DNA from: Thermoanaerobaculia bacterium
Lineage (GTDB): Bacteria; Acidobacteriota; Thermoanaerobaculia; Gp7-AA8
Direction of reading: 5' to 3'
Assembly (NCBI GenBank): GCA_041750915.1
Contig: JBGSYJ010000069.1
Location: 4,946-68,945, forward strand
DNA length: 64,000 nt
This document shows, one piece after another, positions 7,253 through 63,274 of the stretch. The notes below the pieces were generated by a model. That model saw only the letters and a program-made list of their open reading frames with translations, did no database searches and was not told the DNA's origin. Positions within the stretch are counted from its first letter, which is position 1. Each line of letters starts with the position of its first letter. The position numbers were made by a program, and so were the translations under genes.

Positions 7253-7338
7253 TGTCATCCTGAGCGAAGCGAAGGATCCCCTCAGGACTCGCCTTTCGGC
7301 ATGCAATCAGGGGATCCTTCGCTTTGCTCAGGATGACA
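7253..7338. repeat. Type I palindromic element (GTCATCCTGAGCGAAGCGAAGGATCCCC hairpin), copy a
   Basis: Arms TGTCATCCTGAGCGAAGCGAAGGATCCCCT and AGGGGATCCTTCGCTTTGCTCAGGATGACA flank a 26-nt loop. Confidence 0.7.
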
Positions 7339-7424: not shown

Positions 7425-10400
7425 ATGTCCTTCGTTCACCTCCACATGCATACGCAGTATTCGCTGCTCGACGGCGCGAATCGTCCTGAAGATCTCGCCG
7501 CAAGAGTCGCGGAGATGAAGATGCCGGCGTGCGCGATCACTGACCACGGCAATATGTTCGGGGCGATCGACTTCTACAACGCGATGATGGAGAAGAAGGT
7601 CAAGCCAATCATCGGCTGTGAGATGTACATGGCGCTCGGCTCACGGTTCGACAAGGCCGGCGTGGAAAATCAGGATGCCGACGCCGGATCGAACAATCAC
7701 CTGATCGTTCTTGCAACGAATGACGCTGGCTACAGGAACCTCGTCAAGCTGGTTAGCGCTGGATATACCGAGGGGTTCTATTACAAGCCGCGCATCGACA
7801 GGGAACTGCTCAAAGAGCATTCCGAGGGGCTGATCTGCCTGTCATCCTGCCTGAAGGGCGAGGTCTCTCAGGCTCTCGCTGGAGGGAACTTCACGAAGGC
7901 GCTCGATGCTGCCCGCGCGTACAAGGAGATCCTCGGCCCCGACAACTTCTTTCTCGAGATCCAGGACCACGGAATTCCGGATCAGGTGAAGATCATCCCG
8001 CTGATGGCTCAGATTGCCGAGCAGGCAGGTTTGCGGATGGTTGCGACGAACGACTCGCACTATCTCGACAAGACGGACTCCTTTGCCCACGAAGTCCTGC
8101 TGGCAATCGGCACGGGCAAGACGCTCGACGACGATCGCCGGATGAAGTTTTACTCGGATGACTTCTACGTGAAGTCGCCTCAGGAGATGTCGAAGATTTT
8201 CGCGGCGTATCCTGAGGCGGTGGCGAACACGCTCCGGATTGCGGAGCGGGTGGATCTGAAGATTGAGCCGCAGAGTTACCACCTGCCGAACTTCCCCGTG
8301 CCGAAGGGGAGCGATCCGACGACGTACTTCGAAAAGGTAGCCCGCGAAGGCCTCGAGATGCGTCTCGCGGCGATGGCGCATCTGTTCGAGGCGAAACGAA
8401 AAAAACACGAGCGTCAGGAGTACATCGATCGCCTCGAAAGGGAGATCGGCATCATCCGGAGCATGGGCTTTCCTGGCTACTTCCTCGTGGTATGGGATTT
8501 CATCAAATTCGCCAGGGATCACGGGATTCCCGTAGGTCCGGGCCGAGGGTCTGCGGCTGGTTCACTCGTAGCGTACGCGATGAGGATCACGGACGTCGAT
8601 CCGCTGGACTACGACCTCCTGTTCGAGAGGTTTCTCAATCCCGACCGTATCTCGATGCCCGACATCGACATCGACTTCTGCATGAACAATCGCGGGAGGG
8701 TGATCGAGTACGTCCGCGACAAGTACGGAGCGGAGAACGTGGCGCAGATCATCACGTTCGGAACGATGGCCGCCCGTTCCGTGGTTCGGGACGTCGGACG
8801 CGTGCTCGGGATGCCGTTCGGTTTCGTTGACAAGGTGGCCAAGGCCATTCCCTCGGGTCCGGGCGTCATGCTGGCCGATGCAAAAAAAGACTCTCCACTC
8901 CTGGTCGAGGCGATCCGCAGCGACAAGGAAGTCGAAAAGATGATCGATATCGCGCTCCGCCTCGAAGGGCTGACCCGCCACGCGGGGGTTCACGCCGCGG
9001 GCGTCGTCATCACACCTGAGCCCGTTGACCAGTACGTTCCGCTCTACCGCACGAACAAGGACGAAATCGTCACCCAGTACGACATGCGCATCGTCGAGAA
9101 GATGGGGCTTCTCAAGATGGATTTTCTCGGGCTGCGCACGCTCACCGTGATCGACGATGCAATCAAGTCGATCCTCGCACAGGAAGGCGTGAAGCTCGAG
9201 ATCGAGAAGCTGGAGCTCGACGACCCTGAGGTCTACCGTCTATTTCAGGAGGGCCGCACAAAAGGCGTGTTCCAGTTCGAATCGGGAGGCATGGTCGATC
9301 TGCTTCGCAAGGCCCGTCCTACGAAGTTCGAAGATCTGGCGGCGCTTAATGCTCTCTATCGTCCGGGCGCGCTCGATGCGGGCATGGTCGACGAGTATGT
9401 CCGCCGGAAGAACGGACAGTCGAAAGCCAGATATCTCGTTCCTGTCATGCAACCGATTCTGGAGGAGACGTACGGGATCGTCGTCTACCAGGAGCAGGTC
9501 ATGCAGATCGCGCAGGGAGTTGCGAACTATTCGCTTGCACAGGCAGACCTTCTTCGCAAAGCGATGGGAAAGAAGGACAAAGCGATCATGGAGAAGGAGC
9601 GCGTCAGCTTCGTCTCCGGCGCGCTGGACAACGGGTACACACGCGAGAAGGCTGATGCGATCTTCGACTACATCGAGCCCTTCGCCCGCTACGGCTTCAA
9701 CAAGTCGCACTCTGTCGCGTACGCGCTGCTTGCCTACCAGACGGCGTGGCTGAAGGTTCATTATCCGCGTCACTTCATGGCCGCCGTGCTGACGTCCGAG
9801 ATGGACAAGACCGAGAATGTCGTCAAGTTCATCAACGAGACCTCGCAGATGGGGATCCGACTGCTCCCTCCGGACATCAACGAGTCGAATTTCTCGTTCA
9901 CAGTCGTCGGGTCGAATCTCCGGTTCGGACTTGGCGCAGTGAAGGGAGTCGGAGGAAGTGCGATCGAGTCCATCCTCTTTGCGAGGCGAACGGTCGGCCG
10001 CTTCACCGGCTTGTTCGAATTCTGTGAACAGGTCGATCTCCGCGCCTGCAACAAAAAGGTAATCGAGGCGCTGATCAAGTCGGGCTCTTTCGACTCCTTC
10101 CGCCTCACGCGCAAGGCGCTCTTCGAACAGCTGGAGCGGACTGCGGAAAGCGCGATGAAGGCGAAAGAGGAAAAGGAAAGAGGTCAGAGCACACTGTTCG
10201 GAGGCGCGGGCGCAGGCATCATCACGGCACCACGTTCCCTTGCCGCCGCGACAGATTCCGACGAATGGCTCGAGGATGAAAAGCTCGCCTTCGAAAAGGA
10301 AACGCTGGGCTTCTACATCACCGGACATCCTCTCAACAAGTTCGAAGGGGACCTCGAGATTTTCGCGACCGCAAATACGGACACTCTCAAGCGTTTCGTC

Positions 10401-11384
10401 GACCAGACGGTGACGATCGGAGGCATCGTTGGCCAGCTCAAGAAGTCGAAGATCAAGAAGGGGCCAAACGAAGGCAAGCTGATGGCAAAGTTCATCCTCG
10501 ACGACCAATTCGGAAGCGTTGAGGTCGTCGTGTTCAGCGATCTCTTTCAGAAGCATGCGAAATGGCTCGACAACGGTGTGCCGATACTTCTGACTGCCAG
10601 CGTCAAAGACACAGGCGGTGTTCCGGGCGGCCGCAGCGCCGCGCTCGCGCAGGCCGAACAGCAGGCCCGGCAGATCGACGACGAGTACGGCGGACATCCG
10701 GAGGACGATTTCGTCGTTGCCGATCGTCCCTCTCGTTCGGCCACTGACGCGCCGCAGATTTCCTATTACGAAGTCGGCGACGACGAGAATGAAAAGACGG
10801 AAGCTGAGCTCGAGCGGGAGCGGATCGGAACGGAGGTCGACCGATTCAACCTCAGCCTCTTTGGAGGCGCGCCCGCGCAGGAACCCGATGATGATCGGGA
10901 TGACAATGGTGGTGCCGGCGTGCGGACGGATGTCAGTTTGCACAGTCGCGAGGAGGCCGAGGAAGCGCGTGCTGCGATTGCAGAGGAGACCGAGTCTCTG
11001 ATAGCGCCCTCCGAGGCTGACAGCGCCGTCTACGAGCCCGCGCAGATTCTCCACGAAGCGCCGATCACCCCGGAGTTGAATGCCCTTGATCTGGTGCCGC
11101 TCGACGGCATCCGGGAGAAAAAGGTGAAGACGATTGCTCTCGAGATGTCATACACGACGGTGAGCGATTCTTCTCTCGCGAAGCTGCGCGAGATCTTCGA
11201 GAGCCATGCCGGCGAGGTTCCCGTGCTCGTGCGGCTCACGAATGTTCCACCGGAGCTGGCGAAGGAAGCAGGTTCCGATGGCCACGTGCAGCTCAAGCTG
11301 AACCATCACTTCCGAATTCAGCCCGGACAGCCCTTCACCGCCGCGGTGAACGAGCTCGACGCGCGGCTGCAGTATTTGTTCTAG
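7425..11384 (+). CDS. dnaE: DNA polymerase III alpha subunit, with a long acidic C-terminal extension
   Basis: PHP domain ([18 protein letters not shown]), polymerase core ([24 protein letters not shown], NRPG) and OB fold. The 1319 aa are about 150 aa longer than E. coli DnaE. Confidence 0.95.
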   Translation: [1319 protein letters not shown]

Positions 11385-11397
11385 GTGTAGCTCCGCC

Positions 11398-12080
11398 GAC
11401 CCTCTCCCCGCCAGCATGTTGGCCCGAGCGCGAATCGACGTTCGGGGAGAGGGTGGTCCGGCACCCTGCGCCGCGGGACTTGCGCATCGCGCATCTGTGA
11501 ATTGCAGGGTGACGGACCGGGTGAGGGGCAGCCTGGATCCAGCTACCCCTTCATGTATCCGAACTCCCGAGCTCGCGCCTCACATATCCGGAGAATTTCC
11601 GCCGCGCAGATTCCAGGATTTGCGACCAGCTCTTGGTTTTCGAATCGCAGCACTTTTATTCCGAGCTCCCCGAGACGTTTGTCACGCACCGCGTCATCGT
11701 GTCTGCCCTCCGCCGTGAAATGTGGATCGCCGTCGAGCTCGACGTTCACGCGCAATCGGGAGCAGTAGAAGTCGAGGATCATGTTGTCGATCCGATGCTG
11801 CGTTCTGAACTTCCAGCGATGGAGGTCCGGTTTCACAGCATGCCCCATGCAAGCTTCTCGGCATCGGTCAGGCTACGCCTGAGCTCGCGTTCGTTCGTCC
11901 GGTTGATCCCGCGTGTTTGATGCTTCATGGCGAGATCGTACCTCGGCTACCCCTCACCCGGCCCGTCACCCTGCAATCCACAACTGCCTGGGTGCGCGGG
12001 TCTCGCTTCGCAGGGTGCCGGACCACCCTCTCCCCGAATGATGATTCCTGCTTTAGACGACATCCTGGCGGGGAGAGGGT
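11398..12080. mobile_element. DUF559 cassette 1: a 5'-truncated DUF559 gene flanked by imperfect terminal inverted repeats of about 140 bp
   Basis: The left arm 11398-11535 is the reverse complement of the right arm 11945-12080. Both contain CCCTCTCCCCGCCAG...CGGGGAGAGGGTGGTCCGGCACCCTGCG...TTGCAGGGTGACGG.CCGGGTGAGGGG.AGCC. The cassette lies between the convergent 3' ends of dnaE and the amidohydrolase operon. Confidence 0.55.
11543..11848 (-). CDS. DUF559 endonuclease-domain protein (Vsr-like fold), N-terminally short
   Basis: FRTQHRIDNMILDFYCSRLRVNVELDGDPH...GIKVLRFENQELVANPGICAAEI is the DUF559 core (compare xxFRRQxxIGxYIVDFxC...ELDG), but the usual N-terminal region ahead of the DUF559 core (the stretch that reads ARELRRRQTPAERAMWSALRGRR in the full-length copy at 54567..54941) is missing. 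Confidence 0.7.
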   Translation of the reverse strand: MGHAVKPDLHRWKFRTQHRIDNMILDFYCSRLRVNVELDGDPHFTAEGRHDDAVRDKRLGELGIKVLRFENQELVANPGICAAEILRICEARAREFGYMKG

Positions 12081-12093
12081 AAGTCGCGCGACC

Positions 12094-13410
12094 TTAGGGC
12101 CTTCGGCTGAATTTGTCGTACTGCAGCGTGTGATACGAATCGAGCGGTATGTCTTCTCCGCCGATGAAGAGCCTGACGAGGTTCGTCCGGATCTCGAGTG
12201 GATCACCATCGGTGACGATCACATTCGCGATCTTTCCAGCCTCGAGGGAACCGATCCTGTCAGCGACACCAAAAATCTCGGCCGGACTGATCGTCACGGC
12301 GCGGAGGGCCTCTTCCTTCGGCAGTCCAAACGCCGCACAGGCTGCAGCCTGATAGGGGAGGTGTCTCGCATTGTGGGCGCCGCCGGTCCGGATAGCGAAC
12401 CTGATGCCGGCCTGATGGAGAGCAGCGGCATTCGAGAACAGCAGATCATACGGATCGTCCTCTTTGCCGGGAAGCGTCCAGATCGGTCCGAGGAGTACAG
12501 GGACGTTTTTCGATCGAAGCTCCGGAAGCACGCGCTGCACTTCCTGCCCGCCCGAAAGAATCATCCGGATCCCAACCTCGTCGGAAAACTTCATCGCTTC
12601 ACGAATGTCAGCTTCGAGGTTCGCGAAAATGACGAGCGGGACGTCGCCGCGGACGACAGGTACGAGCGCGTGAAGGATGAGGTCCTTCTCGGGCCGATGT
12701 TGTGCATTAATTTTCTCCGAAGCCGAGAGCGCCTTTTCGTACGCTTTCGCGTCCCTGAAGGTATCTCGAAGCTTCTCGAGCTGCGAGGTGTACTGCTTTT
12801 TCGCGCGCTTCTCCCCTTCCTCGTCCTGAGGCTGGCCGGACAACGGTGTCGTTCGCACTCGGGGGAAGTTGATGTGCATGCCGGCGGGACTCTTGAGCAC
12901 CATTTCGGGTGGAGTCCAGCCGGAGAGCTGAATCAGGGCGCTCTGTCCCGAGATGATTCCGCCGCCCGGTTCGGTAAGCACGGTCGTGATGCCGTTGATA
13001 CGCGTGACGGGAATCACGTTGCTGTGCGGATTGAGTGCAACTGCCGCCACTGCATTCGGGTTCAGGTCGCCGAGCTCCTGAATGTCTCGCGTGCCCGCGA
13101 CCGAGCCGACCTCCGTCAGGCCGATCGAGGTTCCGGAGTCGATCATTCCCGGATAAACTGACAGGCCCGTGCCATCGATGACAGTCGCCCCTTCAGGCGT
13201 GTCAACTGTACGGCCTACGGCGACAATCTTTCCGCCGGCGATCACGATGGATCCGCTCTCGATCGGCGCAGATGTCACGGGATAGATCGTTGCGTTGCGG
13301 ATCACGTACGCACCGCCCGGTCCGGGATTGTTCAGGATGACCGACTGTCCCGCTATCGGAAGCGAGGCAGTCATCAGAGCTGCGCAGAGAAGCATTGTTC
13401 GAAGCTTCAT
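12094..13410 (-). CDS. Secreted amidohydrolase-fold protein lacking the HxH metal motif
   Basis: Signal peptide, then PGMIDSGTSIGL where catalytic paralogues read PGxIDxHxH. Four nucleotides overlap the next gene. Confidence 0.8.
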   Translation of the reverse strand: MKLRTMLLCAALMTASLPIAGQSVILNNPGPGGAYVIRNATIYPVTSAPIESGSIVIAGGKIVAVGRTVDTPEGATVIDGTGLSVYPGMIDSGTSIGLTEVGSVAGTRDIQELGDLNPNAVAAVALNPHSNVIPVTRINGITTVLTEPGGGIISGQSALIQLSGWTPPEMVLKSPAGMHINFPRVRTTPLSGQPQDEEGEKRAKKQYTSQLEKLRDTFRDAKAYEKALSASEKINAQHRPEKDLILHALVPVVRGDVPLVIFANLEADIREAMKFSDEVGIRMILSGGQEVQRVLPELRSKNVPVLLGPIWTLPGKEDDPYDLLFSNAAALHQAGIRFAIRTGGAHNARHLPYQAAACAAFGLPKEEALRAVTISPAEIFGVADRIGSLEAGKIANVIVTDGDPLEIRTNLVRLFIGGEDIPLDSYHTLQYDKFSRRP

Positions 13411-16483: not shown

Positions 16484-16545
16484 GATGAAGGATGAAAGAT
16501 GAAGGATGAAGGATGAAGAGCTTCATCCTTCATCCTTCATCCATT
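16484..16545. repeat. Tandem GATGAAG heptads forming a perfect 21-bp inverted repeat (H1)
   Basis: GATGAAGGATGAAAGATGAAGGATGAAGGATGAAG-AGC-TTCATCCTTCATCCTTCATC sits in the 118-bp gap between the oxidoreductase stop and the start of the amidohydrolase operon. Confidence 0.5.
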
Positions 16546-24170: not shown

Positions 24171-24268
24171 GAAGTAGAAGCGTGAAGCGTGAAAGAAGAG
24201 TGAAGAGTGAACGGTGAAGATTGAAAGGGGAGCAATTTCACTCTTCACCCTTCACTCTTCACCCTTCC
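24171..24268. repeat. Purine-rich heptad tandem repeat forming a hairpin (H2) in the divergent gdh intergenic region
   Basis: GAAGCGTGAAGCGTGAAAGAAGAGTGAAGAGTGAA ... TTCACTCTTCACCCTTCACTCTTCACCC. Confidence 0.5.
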
Positions 24269-28122: not shown

Positions 28123-28209
28123 GTCATCCTGAGCGAAGCGAAGGATCCCCCGAGCCTTGCACCATACAGCCAGTAGTAAGGGGATCCTTCGCTGCGCTCA
28201 GGATGACAC
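28123..28209. repeat. Type I palindromic element, copy b
   Basis: GTGTCATCCTGAGCGAAGCGAAGGATCCCCC...GGGGATCCTTCGCTGCGCTCAGGATGACAC. Confidence 0.7.
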
Positions 28210-29334: not shown

Positions 29335-29540
29335 GCTCTCATTCCCCTCTCCCCGTGTGAACGGGGAGAGGGGCAAGGGGAGAGGGGCCGCGCAAGCAAT
29401 TCGAATGTAGCCGACCGCAATGAGTGCCGCAAGCTCGCAACGCCCCTCTCCCGGCGCGCGACACTCCGCAAAGCCTTGAAGTCTGCGCGAACGACGCGCG
29501 CCACCCTCTCCCCGACTTCGCGGGGAGAGGGGAGCACGTC
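29335..29540. repeat. 210-bp multi-hairpin repeat (CCCTCTCCCC...GGGGAGAGGG units), copy 1
   Basis: Four GC hairpins. It matches 49590-49810 in inverted orientation over about 200 bp. Confidence 0.65.
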
Positions 29541-38289: not shown

Positions 38290-38470
38290 GCCAATCGGGC
38301 AAATGTCATCCCGAGCGGGTGGGTGTGTGGGCAAGCGAGGGATCTCCGGCGATGGTACATAGTTGCCTACTGCCGCCGTCACTCTTTCCCTTAATGAATC
38401 TCGTATGTACCATCGCCGGAGATCCCTCGCCCCTCGCACCCACCCGACCAGGCTCGGGATGACACTTGGT
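38290..38470. repeat. MITE-like palindromic element, type II, copy B
   Basis: GTCATCCCGAGCGGGTGGGTGTGTGGGCAAGCGAGGGATCTCCGGCGATGGTACATAG ... TATGTACCATCGCCGGAGATCCCTCGCCCCTCGCACCCACCCGACCAGGCTCGGGATGAC. Confidence 0.6.
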
Positions 38471-42559: not shown

Positions 42560-42949
42560 ATGGCCATACAGCCGAGGCTTGGAGAGCGGGAGCTCGATAT
42601 CATGCAGGTGCTCTGGGATACGGGAGGCGGAACCGTTTCGGATGTGCACGATCTGCTTCTGACCCGTCGAGGGAGTGTCGCTTATACGACAGTGCAGACG
42701 ATGCTCAACCGGCTCGAGGAGAAAGGGCACGTGCGGCGGGAGAAGGTCGGGCGTGCTTACTCGTACAAGCCGGTGATGAAGGAGCCGGCGGCGGCGAAAG
42801 TCGCCGTGAGGCGTGTGATCGATCGCTTTTTCGGGGGAGATCCGGCCGCGCTCGCGACTCACCTGGTTCAGGGTTCCGTTTCGGAGCGCGATCTCGTCCG
42901 CATCGAGGAGCTCATTGCATCGAGACGGGAAGCGGAGAAGAAGCGATGA
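42560..42949 (+). CDS. BlaI/MecI/CopY-family transcriptional repressor
   Basis: ELDIMQVLWDTGGGTVSDVHDLLL...YTTVQTMLNRLEEKGHV is a Penicillinase_R winged helix. Confidence 0.85.
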   Translation: MAIQPRLGERELDIMQVLWDTGGGTVSDVHDLLLTRRGSVAYTTVQTMLNRLEEKGHVRREKVGRAYSYKPVMKEPAAAKVAVRRVIDRFFGGDPAALATHLVQGSVSERDLVRIEELIASRREAEKKR

Positions 42950-44307
42950 GTGCTCTTCCTGCTCTCGCCGCCAATCTCTGGCTCGCAGGCGTTCCGGTGC
43001 TGCTCATCACAGCTGCCTCACTTGCGCTACTTCACAGAGCTCCGGCGCGGCTGCGTTATCTCGCGGCGCTCGCCGGATTCGTCGCCGCGATCGTCGTGCC
43101 GGTTCTGCTGACACGGGAGGCCGCTCCCATTGTCGTGAACGCCGCGGTGCCGGCGACCGCGACCGAATCGTTCGACTCTGCGCTCCTCGTCATTGGGCTC
43201 TGGTTTGCCGGCGCGCTTTTTCTGATTGGACGCGACGTGAGCGCGTATCGGCATCTGCGTCGCGAGGAGCAGGAGTGGATTCCGGCGGGTGAGCTAGGTG
43301 TGGACCCGTCGAAGTTCAGTGTCGTTCTGTCCGTCGGGGGAGCGCCGCGTACGCACGGCCTCCTGCGGCCCGTGATCGTGCTGCCGGAGGAATTGGTGCA
43401 TGCGGAAGCGGAGCTCGTGAGGCTAGTCCTCGCGCATGAGGAGTCGCATGCGCGCTGGCGCGATCCGATGATTCATTCCGCCATCCGCCTCGTGCGGTCG
43501 TTGCTGTGGTTCGCGCTGCCGCTGTGGCTCGCCGAGCGCCTCGTGATCCGGGAACGGGAGGCGGCGGCGGATGAAGCAGCGGTGGCAGCTGAAACGGGTG
43601 AGACGCGATCGCGGTACGCCGAGGCGCTGATCCGGTTCTGCCGCCTCGCTCCACGTCGATCCGCGCTCGCCGTGCAGCTCGGCGCGGCCGCAGATCTCGA
43701 GTACCGCGTGCGGCGGATTCTGCGCGCGTCGACGCGCGCAGGTTCTCTCGCAAGCGCTGTTGGTCTCCTCGGCGCAGGATTCTTTCTCTTCGCGTTCACG
43801 CCGCTGGCGGAGGTTCCTGCGGAAGTCGTCGTCGAGGTTGCAGACGTGCGGGCCGTTCAGAAGCTGGATAACGTGAAGGGTACGAGTGAAGTGCATGCGG
43901 TGATCCGTACAGAGTTCGAGAGTGCCATTGAGAAGAAGATTCGAGCCACGACGTCACGCGCGACTGGTTCGGCGAAGATCGACGACCCGGATGTTGTGGC
44001 GGTTGCGACGGTTGAGGCCATCGCATCCGATAACCCTGTTGCCGAAGGGGCTCCCTCACCCCTGACCCCTCTCCCGCCGGGAGAGGGGAAAGAGATTGCG
44101 CCTATCGTCGCTCCTGAGATCGACGATGAAGTGATCGTGATTCGTGACGTTCACAGGCATCGGCATGTGGATCGCCGCGACGGGAAACGGGGCGAAGAAG
44201 AAATCGCGAACGATACGGGGCGGAGCAGGCATCCGGTCGCACTCTTTCACCGCGGGGTGACCTCGCCCATCAAGCGATTCGTACGGCGGGTGAGGGGATC
44301 GTCGTGA
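42946..44307 (+). CDS. BlaR1-like M56 peptidase signal transducer without a recognisable C-terminal sensor domain
   Basis: Four-TM M56 domain with VLAHEESHARWRDP (HExxH). The C-terminal ~150 aa are low-complexity and include a translated copy of the 36-bp repeat (44056-44091, PSPLTPLPPGEG). Confidence 0.8.
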   Translation: MSALPALAANLWLAGVPVLLITAASLALLHRAPARLRYLAALAGFVAAIVVPVLLTREAAPIVVNAAVPATATESFDSALLVIGLWFAGALFLIGRDVSAYRHLRREEQEWIPAGELGVDPSKFSVVLSVGGAPRTHGLLRPVIVLPEELVHAEAELVRLVLAHEESHARWRDPMIHSAIRLVRSLLWFALPLWLAERLVIREREAAADEAAVAAETGETRSRYAEALIRFCRLAPRRSALAVQLGAAADLEYRVRRILRASTRAGSLASAVGLLGAGFFLFAFTPLAEVPAEVVVEVADVRAVQKLDNVKGTSEVHAVIRTEFESAIEKKIRATTSRATGSAKIDDPDVVAVATVEAIASDNPVAEGAPSPLTPLPPGEGKEIAPIVAPEIDDEVIVIRDVHRHRHVDRRDGKRGEEEIANDTGRSRHPVALFHRGVTSPIKRFVRRVRGSS

Positions 44308-46297: not shown

Positions 46298-46440
46298 ACT
46301 CACTCCTCGGGTGTGGATTGTTTCGCAGTGAGGGAAGAATCACAAGACGTGGGGACATTGACAGGTAGCCCGTCCGGTACGCGTTCAGTGTGACGGTGAA
46401 TCTGGGTCACAGAGGATTCCATTGGTTTAAGCTGCGACGG

Positions 46441-46528
46441 TGTCATCCTGAGCGAAGCGAAGGATCCCCTGATTTCTTGCGACAGGCGAGTACTGAGGGG
46501 ATCCTTCGCTTCGCTCAGGATGACACTC
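46441..46528. repeat. Type I palindromic element, copy e
   Basis: Full inverted arms. A direct repeat TAAGCTGC occurs on both flanks (46428-46435 and 46541-46548), which may be a target-site duplication. Confidence 0.7.
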
Positions 46529-47666: not shown

Positions 47667-47757
47667 AAGTGTCATCCTGAGCGTAGCGAAGGATCCCCAT
47701 ACTATTGGCTGGATCGCAGGGCTTCAGGGGATCCTTCGCTGCGCTCAGGATGACACC
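47667..47757. repeat. Type I palindromic element, copy f
   Basis: Arm, loop and the left flank GCGCAGGAGCAAGTGTCATCC are shared with copy h. Confidence 0.7.
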
Positions 47758-49589: not shown

Positions 49590-49810
49590 TTGTGATTGCA
49601 GTGAGTAGCGACTTCCCTCTCCCCGCGAAGTCGGGGAGAGGGTGGCGCGCGGGAGTCGAGACGACTTTTCGGTTCCGACAGTTCCGCGCGCCGGGAGAGG
49701 GGCGTCCAGGGCTTGCAGCGACTTACTCCAGTTGGCAACATTGGAATGGCCTGCTCGGCCCCTCACCCCTTGCCCCTCTCCCCGTTCACACGGGGAGAGG
49801 GGAATCGCGC
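49590..49810. repeat. 210-bp multi-hairpin repeat, copy 2 (inverted relative to 29335-29540)
   Basis: The reverse complement aligns with copy 1 over about 200 bp, including both terminal hairpins. Confidence 0.65.
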
Positions 49811-49820
49811 GACGTCGACG

Positions 49821-49872
49821 TGGGCGGTTCCACTCAGAACTCACAACTCAGAACTCACAACTCGGCTTACAG
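49821..49872. repeat. Heptad repeat TCCACTCAGAACTCACAACTCAGAACTCACAACTC (H4), one arm of the H5 family
   Basis: A 34-nt block identical to the reverse complement of the 5' arm of the 60715-60786 hairpin. Confidence 0.55.
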
Positions 49873-52880: not shown

Positions 52881-52968
52881 GTGTCATCCTGTGCGCAGCG
52901 AAGGATCCCACTCCGCGAGGCGGTAAGGCAGGTCTTCAGGGGATCCTTCGCTGCGCTCAGGATGACAC
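52881..52968. repeat. Type I palindromic element, copy g
   Basis: GTGTCATCCTGTGCGCAGCGAAGGATCCC...GGGGATCCTTCGCTGCGCTCAGGATGACAC. Further GTCATCCCGAGC-type relics follow, up to about 53040. Confidence 0.7.
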
Positions 52969-54543: not shown

Positions 54544-54999
54544 CCCCTCTCCCGGCGGGAGAGGGGTCAGGGGTGAGGGAGCTTCTTCAGCGCCTCAACC
54601 AAACGCTTGATCCGATCGAGCACGATTTCCGGATTTACGAGCAGCTCTTCATTCTCGATTCGAGTCAGGGTGTAACCGCGATCCTGAAGGTACTGCGTGC
54701 GATGCGCGTCGGACGATTGAACGGACAGATCAAAGTGACCGTCGCCGTCGAGCTCGATGATGAGCCTAACTTCTTCGCAGCAGAAATCAACGATGTAATG
54801 TCCGATCTCGAATTGTCTCTGAAACTTCAGATTCATAAAGCGGCGTCCGCGGAGTGCGGACCACATCGCGCGTTCTGCCGGGGTCTGTCGCCTTCGAAGT
54901 TCGCGGGCTCTTTGGACGAGCTTGTGAGATTCGTGATGCATGAGCGTGATCGTACCTCGGGTTCCCTCACCCCTGACCCCTCTCCCGCCGGGAGAGGGG
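54544..54999. mobile_element. DUF559 cassette 2: full-length DUF559 gene bounded by perfect 36-bp terminal inverted repeats
   Basis: The left end CCCCTCTCCCGGCGGGAGAGGGGTCAGGGGTGAGGG (54544-54579) is the exact reverse complement of the right end CCCTCACCCCTGACCCCTCTCCCGCCGGGAGAGGGG (54964-54999). The gene's stop codon and last three codons lie inside the left repeat. Confidence 0.6.
54567..54941 (-). CDS. DUF559 endonuclease-domain protein (Vsr-like/PD-(D/E)xK)
   Basis: ARELRRRQTPAERAMWSALRGRRFMNLKFQRQFEIGHYIVDFCCEEVRLIIELDGDGH is a full-length DUF559. Confidence 0.8.
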   Translation of the reverse strand: MHHESHKLVQRARELRRRQTPAERAMWSALRGRRFMNLKFQRQFEIGHYIVDFCCEEVRLIIELDGDGHFDLSVQSSDAHRTQYLQDRGYTLTRIENEELLVNPEIVLDRIKRLVEALKKLPHP

Positions 55000-60714: not shown

Positions 60715-60786
60715 GGGAGTTGTGAGTTCTGAGTTGTGAGTTCTGAGTGGAACGCGGCGCTCCACTCAGAACTCAGAACTCGTAGG
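60715..60786. repeat. Heptad-repeat hairpin (H5): (GAGTTGT/GAGTTCT)x4 ... (CAGAACT)x2 with a 14-bp stem
   Basis: GAGTTCTGAGTGGA-ACGCGGCGC-TCCACTCAGAACTC begins two nucleotides after the kinase stop. Confidence 0.6.
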
Positions 60787-63096: not shown

Positions 63097-63274
63097 CCCC
63101 GGGCTCTGCCCCAATGGCGTCAACTTAAGGTCCGCGCAGGAGCAAGTGTCATCCTGAGCGTAGCGAAGGATCTCCTTACTATTGGCTGTATCGCAAGGAT
63201 TGAGGGGATCCTTCGCTTCGCTCAGGATGACACGTTGTGCCTTAAGTTAACGCCATTGGGGCTCTGCCCGGGGG
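63097..63274. repeat. Composite palindrome: type I element (copy h, 63148-63236) nested between outer inverted arms of about 34 bp
   Basis: Outer arms CCCCGGGCTCTGCCCCAATGGCGTCAACTTAAGG and CCTTAAGTTAACGCCATTGGGGCTCTGCCCGGGGG; the inner arms are GTCATCCTGAGCGTAGCGAAGGATC...GGGGATCCTTCGCTTCGCTCAGGATGAC. Confidence 0.6.

Follow-up and report, generated by a model that had tools for sequence, protein, structure and literature searches.

In a stretch of 64,000 nucleotides from a Thermoanaerobaculia genome (contig JBGSYJ010000069.1; the window, in what follows, is this whole stretch) a small DUF559 gene at 11.4-12.1 kb is enclosed tightly by two inverted arms, and together they make up an element of 682 bp that, judged from its sequence, seems to be one copy of a widespread cassette, namely a short DUF559 gene set between two convergent repeats of the BoxC/PIT/TMECO type. 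The comparisons below establish the architecture and its recurrence, the relocation of the gene with intact ends, the inversion, decay and deletion of copies, as well as a homology to a homing nuclease, and purifying selection on the intact copies. On balance we lean towards reading the element (cassette 1) as an old, inverted and decaying copy of a selfish nuclease cassette, the ends of which would be the cognate repeats of the nuclease.

The element between dnaE and the amidohydrolase genes

Cassette 1 occupies the gap between the stop codon of dnaE (11382-11384) and that of an amidohydrolase gene (12094-12096), with just 14 and 13 nt left over, and the flanking genes, one coding for a 1319-aa DnaE and the other the last of three consecutive amidohydrolase genes, are convergent, as a preliminary description of this DNA had it. 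The arms, at 11399-11535 and 11945-12080, are about 82% complementary, and a repeat search divides them into parts of 88 nt (11399-11486 and 11993-12080, 82% complementary) and of 43 nt (11491-11533 and 11945-11987, 88% complementary). The preliminary description had put inverted repeats at these coordinates and expected them to align at about 80% or better over at least 100 bp; from block to block the identity is 106/130 (81.5%), and a local alignment of one flank with the reverse complement of the other scores 72, against a mean of 8.4 (standard deviation 1.3) and a maximum of 16 for 500 shuffles. Inside each arm there is a perfect 12-bp stem, ACCCTCTCCCCG / CGGGGAGAGGGT, with a 32-nt loop, and a second hairpin, GGTCCGGCACCCTGCG...CGCAGGGTGACGGNCC, is also present in each arm; on folding as single-stranded DNA each arm gives two hairpins (z = -3.4 and -3.6). 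An exact-protein look-up of the amidohydrolase gave no record.

The open reading frame (ORF) at 11543..11848 on the minus strand belongs to DUF559, as had been proposed (PF04480, E = 5.5e-19, 68.5 bits with a cut-off of 20.6). The gene had also been taken for a decaying and 5'-truncated one; the decay stands, in the form of a nonsense codon plus a frameshift, but the truncation does not, since the first 31 codons, which begin with the ATG at 11928 and cover 11836-11928, can be read in a frame different from that of the annotated 101-aa ORF. By Pfam, three-frame translation and alignment with intact homologues the gene is thus a full-length pseudogene at 11543..11928 (minus strand), YcjD-like and with the Vsr/EDxHD fold, interrupted by a premature TGA at codon 32 (11833..11835, minus strand; CGA or AGA in relatives) and, some 6 nt downstream of the TGA, by the loss of 1 nt at position 102 of the gene (about 11827/11828). 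Intact 128-aa homologues, P0002 and P0003, are 76% and 73% identical to its protein.

A second DUF559 gene in the window, that of cassette 2 (described below), is intact and encodes a protein that matches PF04480 with E = 4.6e-35 (120.2 bits) and shares 40% of its residues with the cassette 1 protein; the match to the NCBIfam YcjD model scores less than the equivalog cut-off of that model. The AlphaFold model of the cassette 2 protein, with a pLDDT (predicted local distance difference test) of 89.3, has a Vsr-like alpha/beta nuclease fold, and in Foldseek comparisons resembles the solved DUF559 structure 3HRL (E = 1.8e-8, TM-score 0.66/0.85) and the catalytic domain of the EDxHD homing endonuclease I-Bth0305I, 3R3P (E = 4e-4, TM-score 0.61-0.75). 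The DUF559 family profile finds 3HRL at E = 1.5e-34 and 3R3P at E = 4.9e-6 by sequence alone. Residues E24, D53, E64, D66, H70 and D79 are invariant in the DUF559 alignments A4 and A7, among them the conserved E, D, H and D. Proteins of the family at 124-128 aa consist of the catalytic domain and two N-terminal helices, and a Pfam scan of both window proteins gives no further domain, the N-terminal NUMOD/HTH (helix-turn-helix) region being absent; PADLOC and PHROGs return no meaningful assignment. As a family DUF559 is very large; a structure has been solved, and we know of no role for the family. The likeness to Vsr, the very-short-patch repair endonuclease, is that of a shared fold family and is weak (1VSR, Foldseek E = 0.046); in contrast to Vsr itself, Pfam gives DUF559 for these proteins, and there is no cytosine methyltransferase gene among the identified flanking genes of both window cassettes, a 1879-aa ORF beside cassette 2 having been left unscanned. 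Vsr, DUF559 and I-Bth0305I have been grouped together before (Steczkiewicz 2012).

Triplex-type repeats and a second cassette in the window

BoxC/PIT/TMECO repeats have been known since the 1990s (Bergler 1992; Hoyne and Maher 2000; Holder et al. 2015, PMC4666352). Hundreds of bacterial genomes contain them; in vitro they fold into stable triplexes, and in genomes they mark places where rearrangement is frequent. The motif runs from a pyrimidine block through loop 1, a complementary purine block and loop 2 to a G-rich third block that is a mirror repeat (Holder et al. 2015). Because the order of blocks is identical, the arms of cassette 1 are, at the level of their sequence, intrastrand-triplex motifs of this type in which both loops have expanded. 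Read from the outside in, they run CCCTCTCCCC, 34 nt, GGGGAGAGGG, a nested hairpin of about 65 nt, GGGTGAGGGG, the 5 nt (C/T)AGCC and then the gene. In the arm on the dnaE side, which lies at the gene's 3' end (11399..11535, plus strand; sequence, repeats, fold at z = -3.4 and a relaxed motif finder all point to it), the pyrimidine block CCCTCTCCCC is at 11400-11409, loop 1 of 34 nt at 11410-11443, the purine block GGGGAGAGGG at 11444-11453, loop 2, which is the second hairpin GGTCCGGCACCCTGCG...CGCAGGGTGACGGACC, at 11454-11518, and the third block GGGTGAGGGG at 11519-11528. The arm on the amidohydrolase side, at the gene's 5' end (11945..12080, minus strand; from sequence, repeats, fold and the relaxed motif finder), has as its pyrimidine block the reverse complement of 12070-12079, loop 1 at 12036-12069, as its purine block the reverse complement of 12026-12035, loop 2 with the second hairpin at 11960-12025, and as its third block the reverse complement of 11950-11959. 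Between that third block and the ATG comes a leader, TAGCCGAGGTACGATCTCGCC (11929..11949, minus strand), and a -10-like TACGAT in this conserved leader, 6-7 nt ahead of the start codon, might mark a leaderless promoter, which is only a guess.

In both arms of cassette 1 the third block mirrors the purine block (GGGGAGAGGG / GGGTGAGGGG), as it does in cassette 2 (GGGAGAGGGG / GGGGTGAGGG), with G*G and A/T*A triads, and therefore a purine-motif triplex is possible. The pattern of Holder et al. (2015), CCCTCNCCC N3-6 GGGNGAGGG N3 GGGNGAGGG, has no match in the window in its strict form; with a loop 2 of 3-5 nt (10-nt stems) it matches at 54545 (plus strand), 54964 (minus strand) and 44053 (minus strand). 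As their blocks are in order but their loops are of 34 and about 65 nt, the cassette 1 arms would be a derived form of the motif, and since the 5' arm of the same element in a relative (L002) has the same three blocks with a loop 2 of just 14 nt, the loops are the variable part of an arm. The 11-mer CCCTCTCCCCG, with at most one mismatch, occurs 21 times in the window, against 3.0 expected.

The E. coli K-12 motif has the sequence CCCTCGCCCCTCTGGGGAGAGGGTTAGGGTGAGGGG, in 23 TMECO copies at 18 loci (Holder et al. 2015). The window repeats share with the published ones their block order and very nearly their sequence (CCCCTCTCCC-GGC-GGGAGAGGGG-TCA-GGGGTGAGGG in the window, CCCTCTCCCTGTGGGAGAGGGTCGGGGTGAGGGC in E. 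coli), a mostly intergenic placement as single motifs or convergent pairs, and deletions that leave a hairpin. They differ in the loop lengths of cassette 1, with a nested hairpin and outside the strict published pattern, and in that a pair here encloses a gene. For the published motifs no mobility function is reported; according to Holder et al. (2015) remnants of transposases or integrases have never been found near them, and neither ycjD nor endonucleases are mentioned anywhere in that paper. Of the initial idea that the repeats are the element's own ends, then, the flanking position is kept and the privacy is not, because they belong to a family that is gene-less at many loci.

Besides the expanded arms of cassette 1 the window holds five compact triplex motifs, mostly intergenic and one intragenic. 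Two of these bound cassette 2 (54544-54999), which lies between a gene for a SpoIIE-type phosphatase and the 1879-aa ORF. Its intact 124-aa DUF559 gene (54567..54941, minus strand; PF04480) has at its 3' end the compact motif CCCCTCTCCC-GGC-GGGAGAGGGG-TCA-GGGGTGAGGG (54544..54579, plus strand), loop 2 of which (TCA, 54567-54569) is on the other strand the stop codon of the gene, and at its 5' end a second compact motif (54964..54999, minus strand), convergent with the first, so that both third blocks point toward the gene. All four cassettes that were aligned (the two of the window and those of L002 and L003) have exactly the leader core CCGAGGTACGAT despite the divergence of their proteins; together with the following C it is also found in L173 and L174, and L172 has CCGAGGTCCGATC.

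A convergent pair without a gene is found at 29344..29531, where a compact motif (29346-29386, plus strand) faces one with a 51-nt hairpin in loop 2 (29445-29531, minus strand), and a second copy of the pair, again with the 51-nt loop-2 hairpin in one member, lies in the opposite orientation at 49615..49802. A solo motif at 44053..44088 (minus strand), the 35-nt core of which is identical to the ends of cassette 2, sits inside the ORF 42946-44307 (BlaR1/peptidase M56-like), towards its 3' end; it seems to be in frame with this ORF and would encode ...APSPLTPLPPGEGK...

Repeats of other kinds are also present. A separate and unrelated family of intergenic hairpins has the stem (GTGTCATCCTGAGCGA)AGCGAAGGATCCCC(T) with loops of 25-34 nt, at 7267-7324, 28137-28193, 46440-46526, 47685-47740, 52893-52956 and 63162-63217, with a variant at 38335-38430, and this family also fills the dnaE/amidohydrolase junction of one relative (L166, 4430-4520). 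Purine-rich short tandem or palindromic repeats, with units GATGAAG, GAAGAGTGAA and GAGTTCTGAGT / CTCAGAACTCACAA, stand at gene ends (16484-16542, 24195-24262, 60723-60781 and 49835-49870). DnaE itself (7425-11384) has past its OB-fold domain a long acidic low-complexity stretch, at about residues 1090-1230, with many spurious antisense ORFs.

History in relatives and recurrence across bacteria

At the dnaE junction of close relatives the element is variously present, inverted, degraded or absent. In L002 and L003 (amidohydrolase of L003 86.8% identical to that of the window) it is entire and in the reversed orientation, and the genes are intact with a ratio of non-synonymous to synonymous substitution rates (dN/dS) of 0.13, which indicates purifying selection on these copies. 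In L004 the outer pyrimidine and purine blocks are joined through outer parts of the loops into one long hairpin (z = -5.3), and in L164, the amidohydrolase of which is 98.4% identical to that of L004, half of the second hairpin and the outer hairpin of one arm abut the dnaE stop codon. L165 (amidohydrolase 84.5% identical to the window and about 90% to L004) has no such repeat in the 57 nt beside the amidohydrolase stop codon, and L166 (about 80% to all others) has the different repeat family mentioned above. The hairpin of L004 was considered as a naive empty site, but since L164, at 98% identity, retains an inner piece of an arm, we take it instead for what a symmetric deletion left behind; L004 and L164 are on these comparisons two independent deletions of a complete element. 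An inversion that took whole arms along is supported for the 3' arm of the window (87.1% identical to the 3' arm of L003 and 79.7% to its 5' arm) and ambiguous for the 5' arm (81.1% against 83.5%).

The simplest history for cassette 1 is one of gain, inversion, pseudogenisation and deletion. The element would have been gained at the dnaE/amidohydrolase junction in the ancestor of the clade of the window, L003 and L004; the loops of its repeats would have grown by nested hairpins; it would have stayed functional in sister lineages, been inverted in one lineage (the window orientation being opposite to that of L002 and L003), become a pseudogene in the window genome by nonsense codon and frameshift, and been deleted in other relatives down to hairpin remnants.

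The inversion between close relatives, the hairpins at convergent 3' ends and the enrichment of DUF559 proteins among predicted targets of programmed inversion (odds ratio 14.3; Milman 2023) could together suggest that the element is a switch for programmed inversion, or else a regulatory structure or a terminator for dnaE and the amidohydrolase operon, and that the DUF559 ORF is incidental to it. We regard this as highly improbable: no invertase gene is among the immediate neighbours (dnaE and three amidohydrolase genes), a promoter and terminator scan of 11300-12200 found no site and an Rfam search of the same interval at E <= 1 zero families, PIT elements were inactive both as promoters and as terminators in earlier studies that Holder et al. 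(2015) cite, relatives manage without the element, and the cassette is found in contexts that are not convergent as well.

Movement is seen with cassette 2. Its closest relatives (65-74% amino acid identity) agree with it in their motif ends and almost completely in the leader, and have other neighbours: where the window has the SpoIIE-type phosphatase gene and the 1879-aa ORF, L172 (from the same metagenome-assembled genome as L004) has an FG-GAP gene, and L173 and L174 have a methyltransferase gene and an unrelated 436-aa gene. Three contexts with the ends intact argue that the gene relocates together with its repeats, as read from these alignments. The L172 gene has an internal deletion, and in the 3' triplex motif of this decayed cassette an element of about 170 bp is inserted (L172 459-640, JBGTDX010000080.1), with inverted ends ATACGCGCTAACTTT / AAAGTTAGCGCATAT, an internal hairpin of GAATGTTGAA repeats and a flanking duplication of CCCCTGACCCC; outside the motifs of L172, 28 nt (AGTCTCGAAATAAAGAGTGGCGGTGGTT) form a perfect inverted repeat.

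Beyond these relatives, 80 metagenomic DUF559 loci from a scan for close relatives of cassette 1 (proteins at 38-51% identity, on contigs of 29-69% GC, among the matches listed) served as a sample of the family and not as a search for other insertion sites of cassette 1. A pyrimidine/purine hairpin, taken as a perfect stem of at least 8 bp with a loop of at most 12 nt, lies within 300 bp at 63 of the 80, at a density of 3.33/kb near the gene against 0.16/kb elsewhere. Within 120 bp such a hairpin is found for 38/59 DUF559 genes and 3/40 control ORFs (at least 150 aa, from the same contigs; Fisher p = 6e-9), and on both sides within that distance for 26/59 and 1/40 (Fisher p = 2e-6), the nearest one standing at a median of 56 nt upstream of the start codon and 28 nt downstream of the stop codon. 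Long flanking repeats, inverted or direct, occur at many of the loci. Subtypes of the motif were named GC type (CCCTCTCCC / GGGTGAGGG), AT type (CCCCTCCTT / GGGGTGGTT) and a C5-6 cyanobacterial type. CCCCTCC, GGAGGGG and GGGGTGG are enriched near the genes, the last being the third block of an AT-type motif (AAGGAGGGG / GGGGTGGTT) and commoner upstream of the gene, with its complement CCACCCC commoner downstream; this k-mer is mostly on the gene side. A strict motif finder (loop 2 of at most 8 nt) places motifs at 16/76 loci, and one with relaxed loops at 53/76. Two DUF559 cassettes share a single 4-kb contig, L115.

Triplex-type repeats also stand beside the DUF559 gene in 8/8 isolate replicons from PLSDB, across Pseudomonadota, Deinococcota and Cyanobacteriota (Neisseria gonorrhoeae, Deinococcus, Synechocystis, Azospirillum, Sphingomonas, Picosynechococcus PCC 7002, Sinorhizobium and Pseudanabaena), the Sinorhizobium repeats being almost identical to those of E. 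coli and of the window. In all, DUF559 genes of many phyla have repeats of this kind at their sides. The N. gonorrhoeae gene is presumably that of the solved structure 3HRL. The DUF559 gene of Enterobacter hormaechei overlaps a motif, the third block and loop 2 of which double as the final codons and the stop codon of the gene. E. coli K-12 has a single DUF559 gene, ycjD, the stop codon of which is covered by a motif hairpin in reverse orientation (TCACCCTCTCCCTGAAAGAGCGAGGGGG). Past this hairpin comes a repeated piece of the 3' end of ycjD itself, and some 170 bp downstream of the gene stands TMECO #9 of Holder's Table 1. This diverged duplicate (GGAGACGGTGCTGGAGAATATTC...; L170 3330-3410, NC_000913.3 at about 1351330-1351410) lies between the stop-codon hairpin and TMECO #9 and may be the trace of an earlier recombination or of a second cassette. 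Two convergent motif pairs of E. coli, #1/#2 with 16 bp between the motifs and #10/#11 with 27 bp, have the geometry of an empty cassette. Genomes of E. coli without ycjD were tried as empty sites and rejected, because their sapF-fabI interval holds a 7.5-kb efflux island of the eefRABC type; in E. coli BEN2908 (L171) the homology to K-12 breaks about 44 bp from TMECO #9.

On a Beggiatoa-like contig (L125 4886-5498) a small ORF, which by its sequence we take to resemble an antitoxin of the DUF2281 type, lies between two CCCCTCCTT hairpins, and so such repeats may bracket other small genes too. The association could then be a passive one, fragile and recombinogenic motif clusters being places where small horizontally acquired genes land or survive, with DUF559 functionally unrelated to them. 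Consistent with this are, besides the antitoxin-like ORF, the link of the motifs to elevated local rearrangement, the variable arrangement of flanking motifs, and the alternative cargo (ycjD or the eef island) in the sapF-fabI interval by TMECO #9. Passive association nevertheless seems to us quite unlikely, given the precision of the geometry, with a stop codon in loop 2 (Acidobacteriota and Enterobacter) or a motif hairpin over the stop codon (E. coli) and hairpins so close past the stop codon in the metagenomic loci, given that the only DUF559 gene of E. coli adjoins one of just 18 motif loci, given the frequency of the association in isolates and metagenomes alike, and given that the ends travel with the gene to new contexts.

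Another possibility is that the DUF559 gene is an immobile resident that acts in trans, spreading or maintaining gene-less motif singlets and pairs much as a RAYT would, its flanking repeats being simply its own sites. Such a role would suit genomes with one or two genes and many gene-less motifs (one ycjD and 23 TMECOs in E. coli K-12; the gene-less pairs and the solo motif of the window), the likeness of the gene-less convergent pairs of E. coli and the window to REPIN doublets, the vertical inheritance and purifying selection of cassette 1 in sister lineages, the single context of the Enterobacter hormaechei homologue in all 24 contigs read, the counts of 29 motifs in E. coli 55989 and just 1 in IHE3034 (Holder et al. 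2015), and some ycjD-negative records (H56 and H57) without extra matches to the TMECO #9 region. Against it are the three contexts of the cassette 2 relatives with their ends intact, a strand-transfer chemistry that is known for no 120-aa PD-(D/E)XK nuclease, and O157:H7 records that lack ycjD and retain motifs; an immobile gene of this kind is in our judgement unlikely, if still credible.

Proposed mechanism, known systems and meaning

If instead the element is a selfish nuclease cassette, as we favour, then a repeat (a motif or a convergent pair) would be the cis site recognised and cut by the DUF559 nuclease, and repair of the break would copy the gene, or a gene-less pair of repeats, to a repeat elsewhere in the genome or to a different cell in which the allele is empty. 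Repeats of 35-130 bp, or the flanking genes after transfer between cells, would serve as homology, and so spread would be homing-like with the dispersed repeats as homology arms. The target being palindromic, either orientation would be permitted, and long inverted arms would promote both inversion and a symmetric, hairpin-mediated deletion. The preliminary description had supposed a minimal mobile or selfish cassette, and the recurrent compact cassette, its three contexts and the match to a homing nuclease speak for that supposition; recent mobility of cassette 1 itself they do not bear out.

Several observations weigh on the other side. Neither a target-site duplication at the element ends nor a certain naive empty site at the dnaE junction of relatives was found, and close homologues of cassette 1 occur at this single junction only, which fits plain vertical inheritance; the data for cassette 1 fit a long vertical residence better than a recent movement. 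To our knowledge no nuclease activity or DNA specificity has been described for any short DUF559 protein, and so its cleavage of the repeats is purely something we infer. The metagenomic sample comprises only loci among the matches listed and the control set is small (40 ORFs), and the upstream orientation bias of the motifs vanishes under relaxed loop limits. Flanking motifs are not always convergent, being divergent in Synechocystis, direct in Sphingomonas and direct repeats at some other loci, and at least one small ORF that is not DUF559, that of L125, lies between such hairpins. Finally ycjD is absent from 2048/5426 E. coli genomes (38%), which still carry motifs.

One parallel among known systems is that of REP/REPIN-RAYT, in which dispersed short palindromic repeats, also found as inverted doublets, accompany a low-copy gene for a DNA-cleaving enzyme flanked by those repeats in inverted orientation, and in which the RAYT is an HUH/Y1 transposase (IS200/IS605-like). 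Dispersed palindromic repeats, inverted doublets and a low-copy enzyme gene between inverted repeats are common to both. The analogy is functional only: DUF559 is a Vsr-like nuclease of the PD-(D/E)XK type and not an HUH/Y1 transposase, the triplex motif has a third, G-rich block, and relatives have the DUF559 gene, together with its repeats, between other neighbour genes.

With the EDxHD homing endonucleases there is the homologous catalytic domain and its conserved E, D, H and D, and a selfish life style is plausible for DUF559, of which intact, decayed and lost copies are all seen; a further likeness is the pseudopalindromic target of I-Bth0305I (Taylor et al. 2011, PMC3239194). In contrast to them the DUF559 proteins are without the N-terminal DNA-binding region, and the gene is outside any intron or intein and has repeats on its two sides instead of the interrupted parts of a host gene. 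Miniature inverted-repeat transposable elements (MITEs) are likewise short, with terminal inverted repeats that enclose no gene, and with gene-less derivatives, but the cassette ends have no target-site or direct duplication and the element encodes a nuclease gene. Integron cassettes resemble it in the hairpin-forming imperfect palindromes beside a small, often promoter-less ORF and in gene-less derivatives; no attC R''/R' core sites (RYYYAAC...GTTRRRY) were seen at the cassette ends by eye, no pattern search having been run, and for both comparisons there is no transposase or integrase among the identified neighbour genes of the window cassettes.

Within the literature searched (open-access papers and bioRxiv) flanking repeats are not described for DUF559, and work on COG2852/ycjD, on EDxHD and following up the triplex motif does not report the association; within that scope the pairing of DUF559 with triplex repeats is undescribed, the repeats themselves being already known. 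More tentatively, and with somewhat less confidence than we attach to the selfish cassette, the short DUF559/YcjD proteins may be the cognate enzymes of the BoxC/PIT/triplex repeats in general, a phylum-spanning counterpart of REP-RAYT with a Vsr/EDxHD nuclease that would recognise the hairpin or the triplex-forming motif and either home between convergent pairs or spread gene-less ones. Were this so, it would be clear how these repeats arose and why the genome is unstable near them, a repeat family orphaned for 30 years would gain a candidate enzyme and DUF559, a large domain family, a substrate, and the idea is directly testable in E. coli K-12 with its ycjD and 23 TMECO copies. It would also place beside REP-RAYT a second and mechanistically different system of a repeat plus a resident nuclease, and would extend the EDxHD homing-endonuclease lineage to free-standing genes that target repeats.

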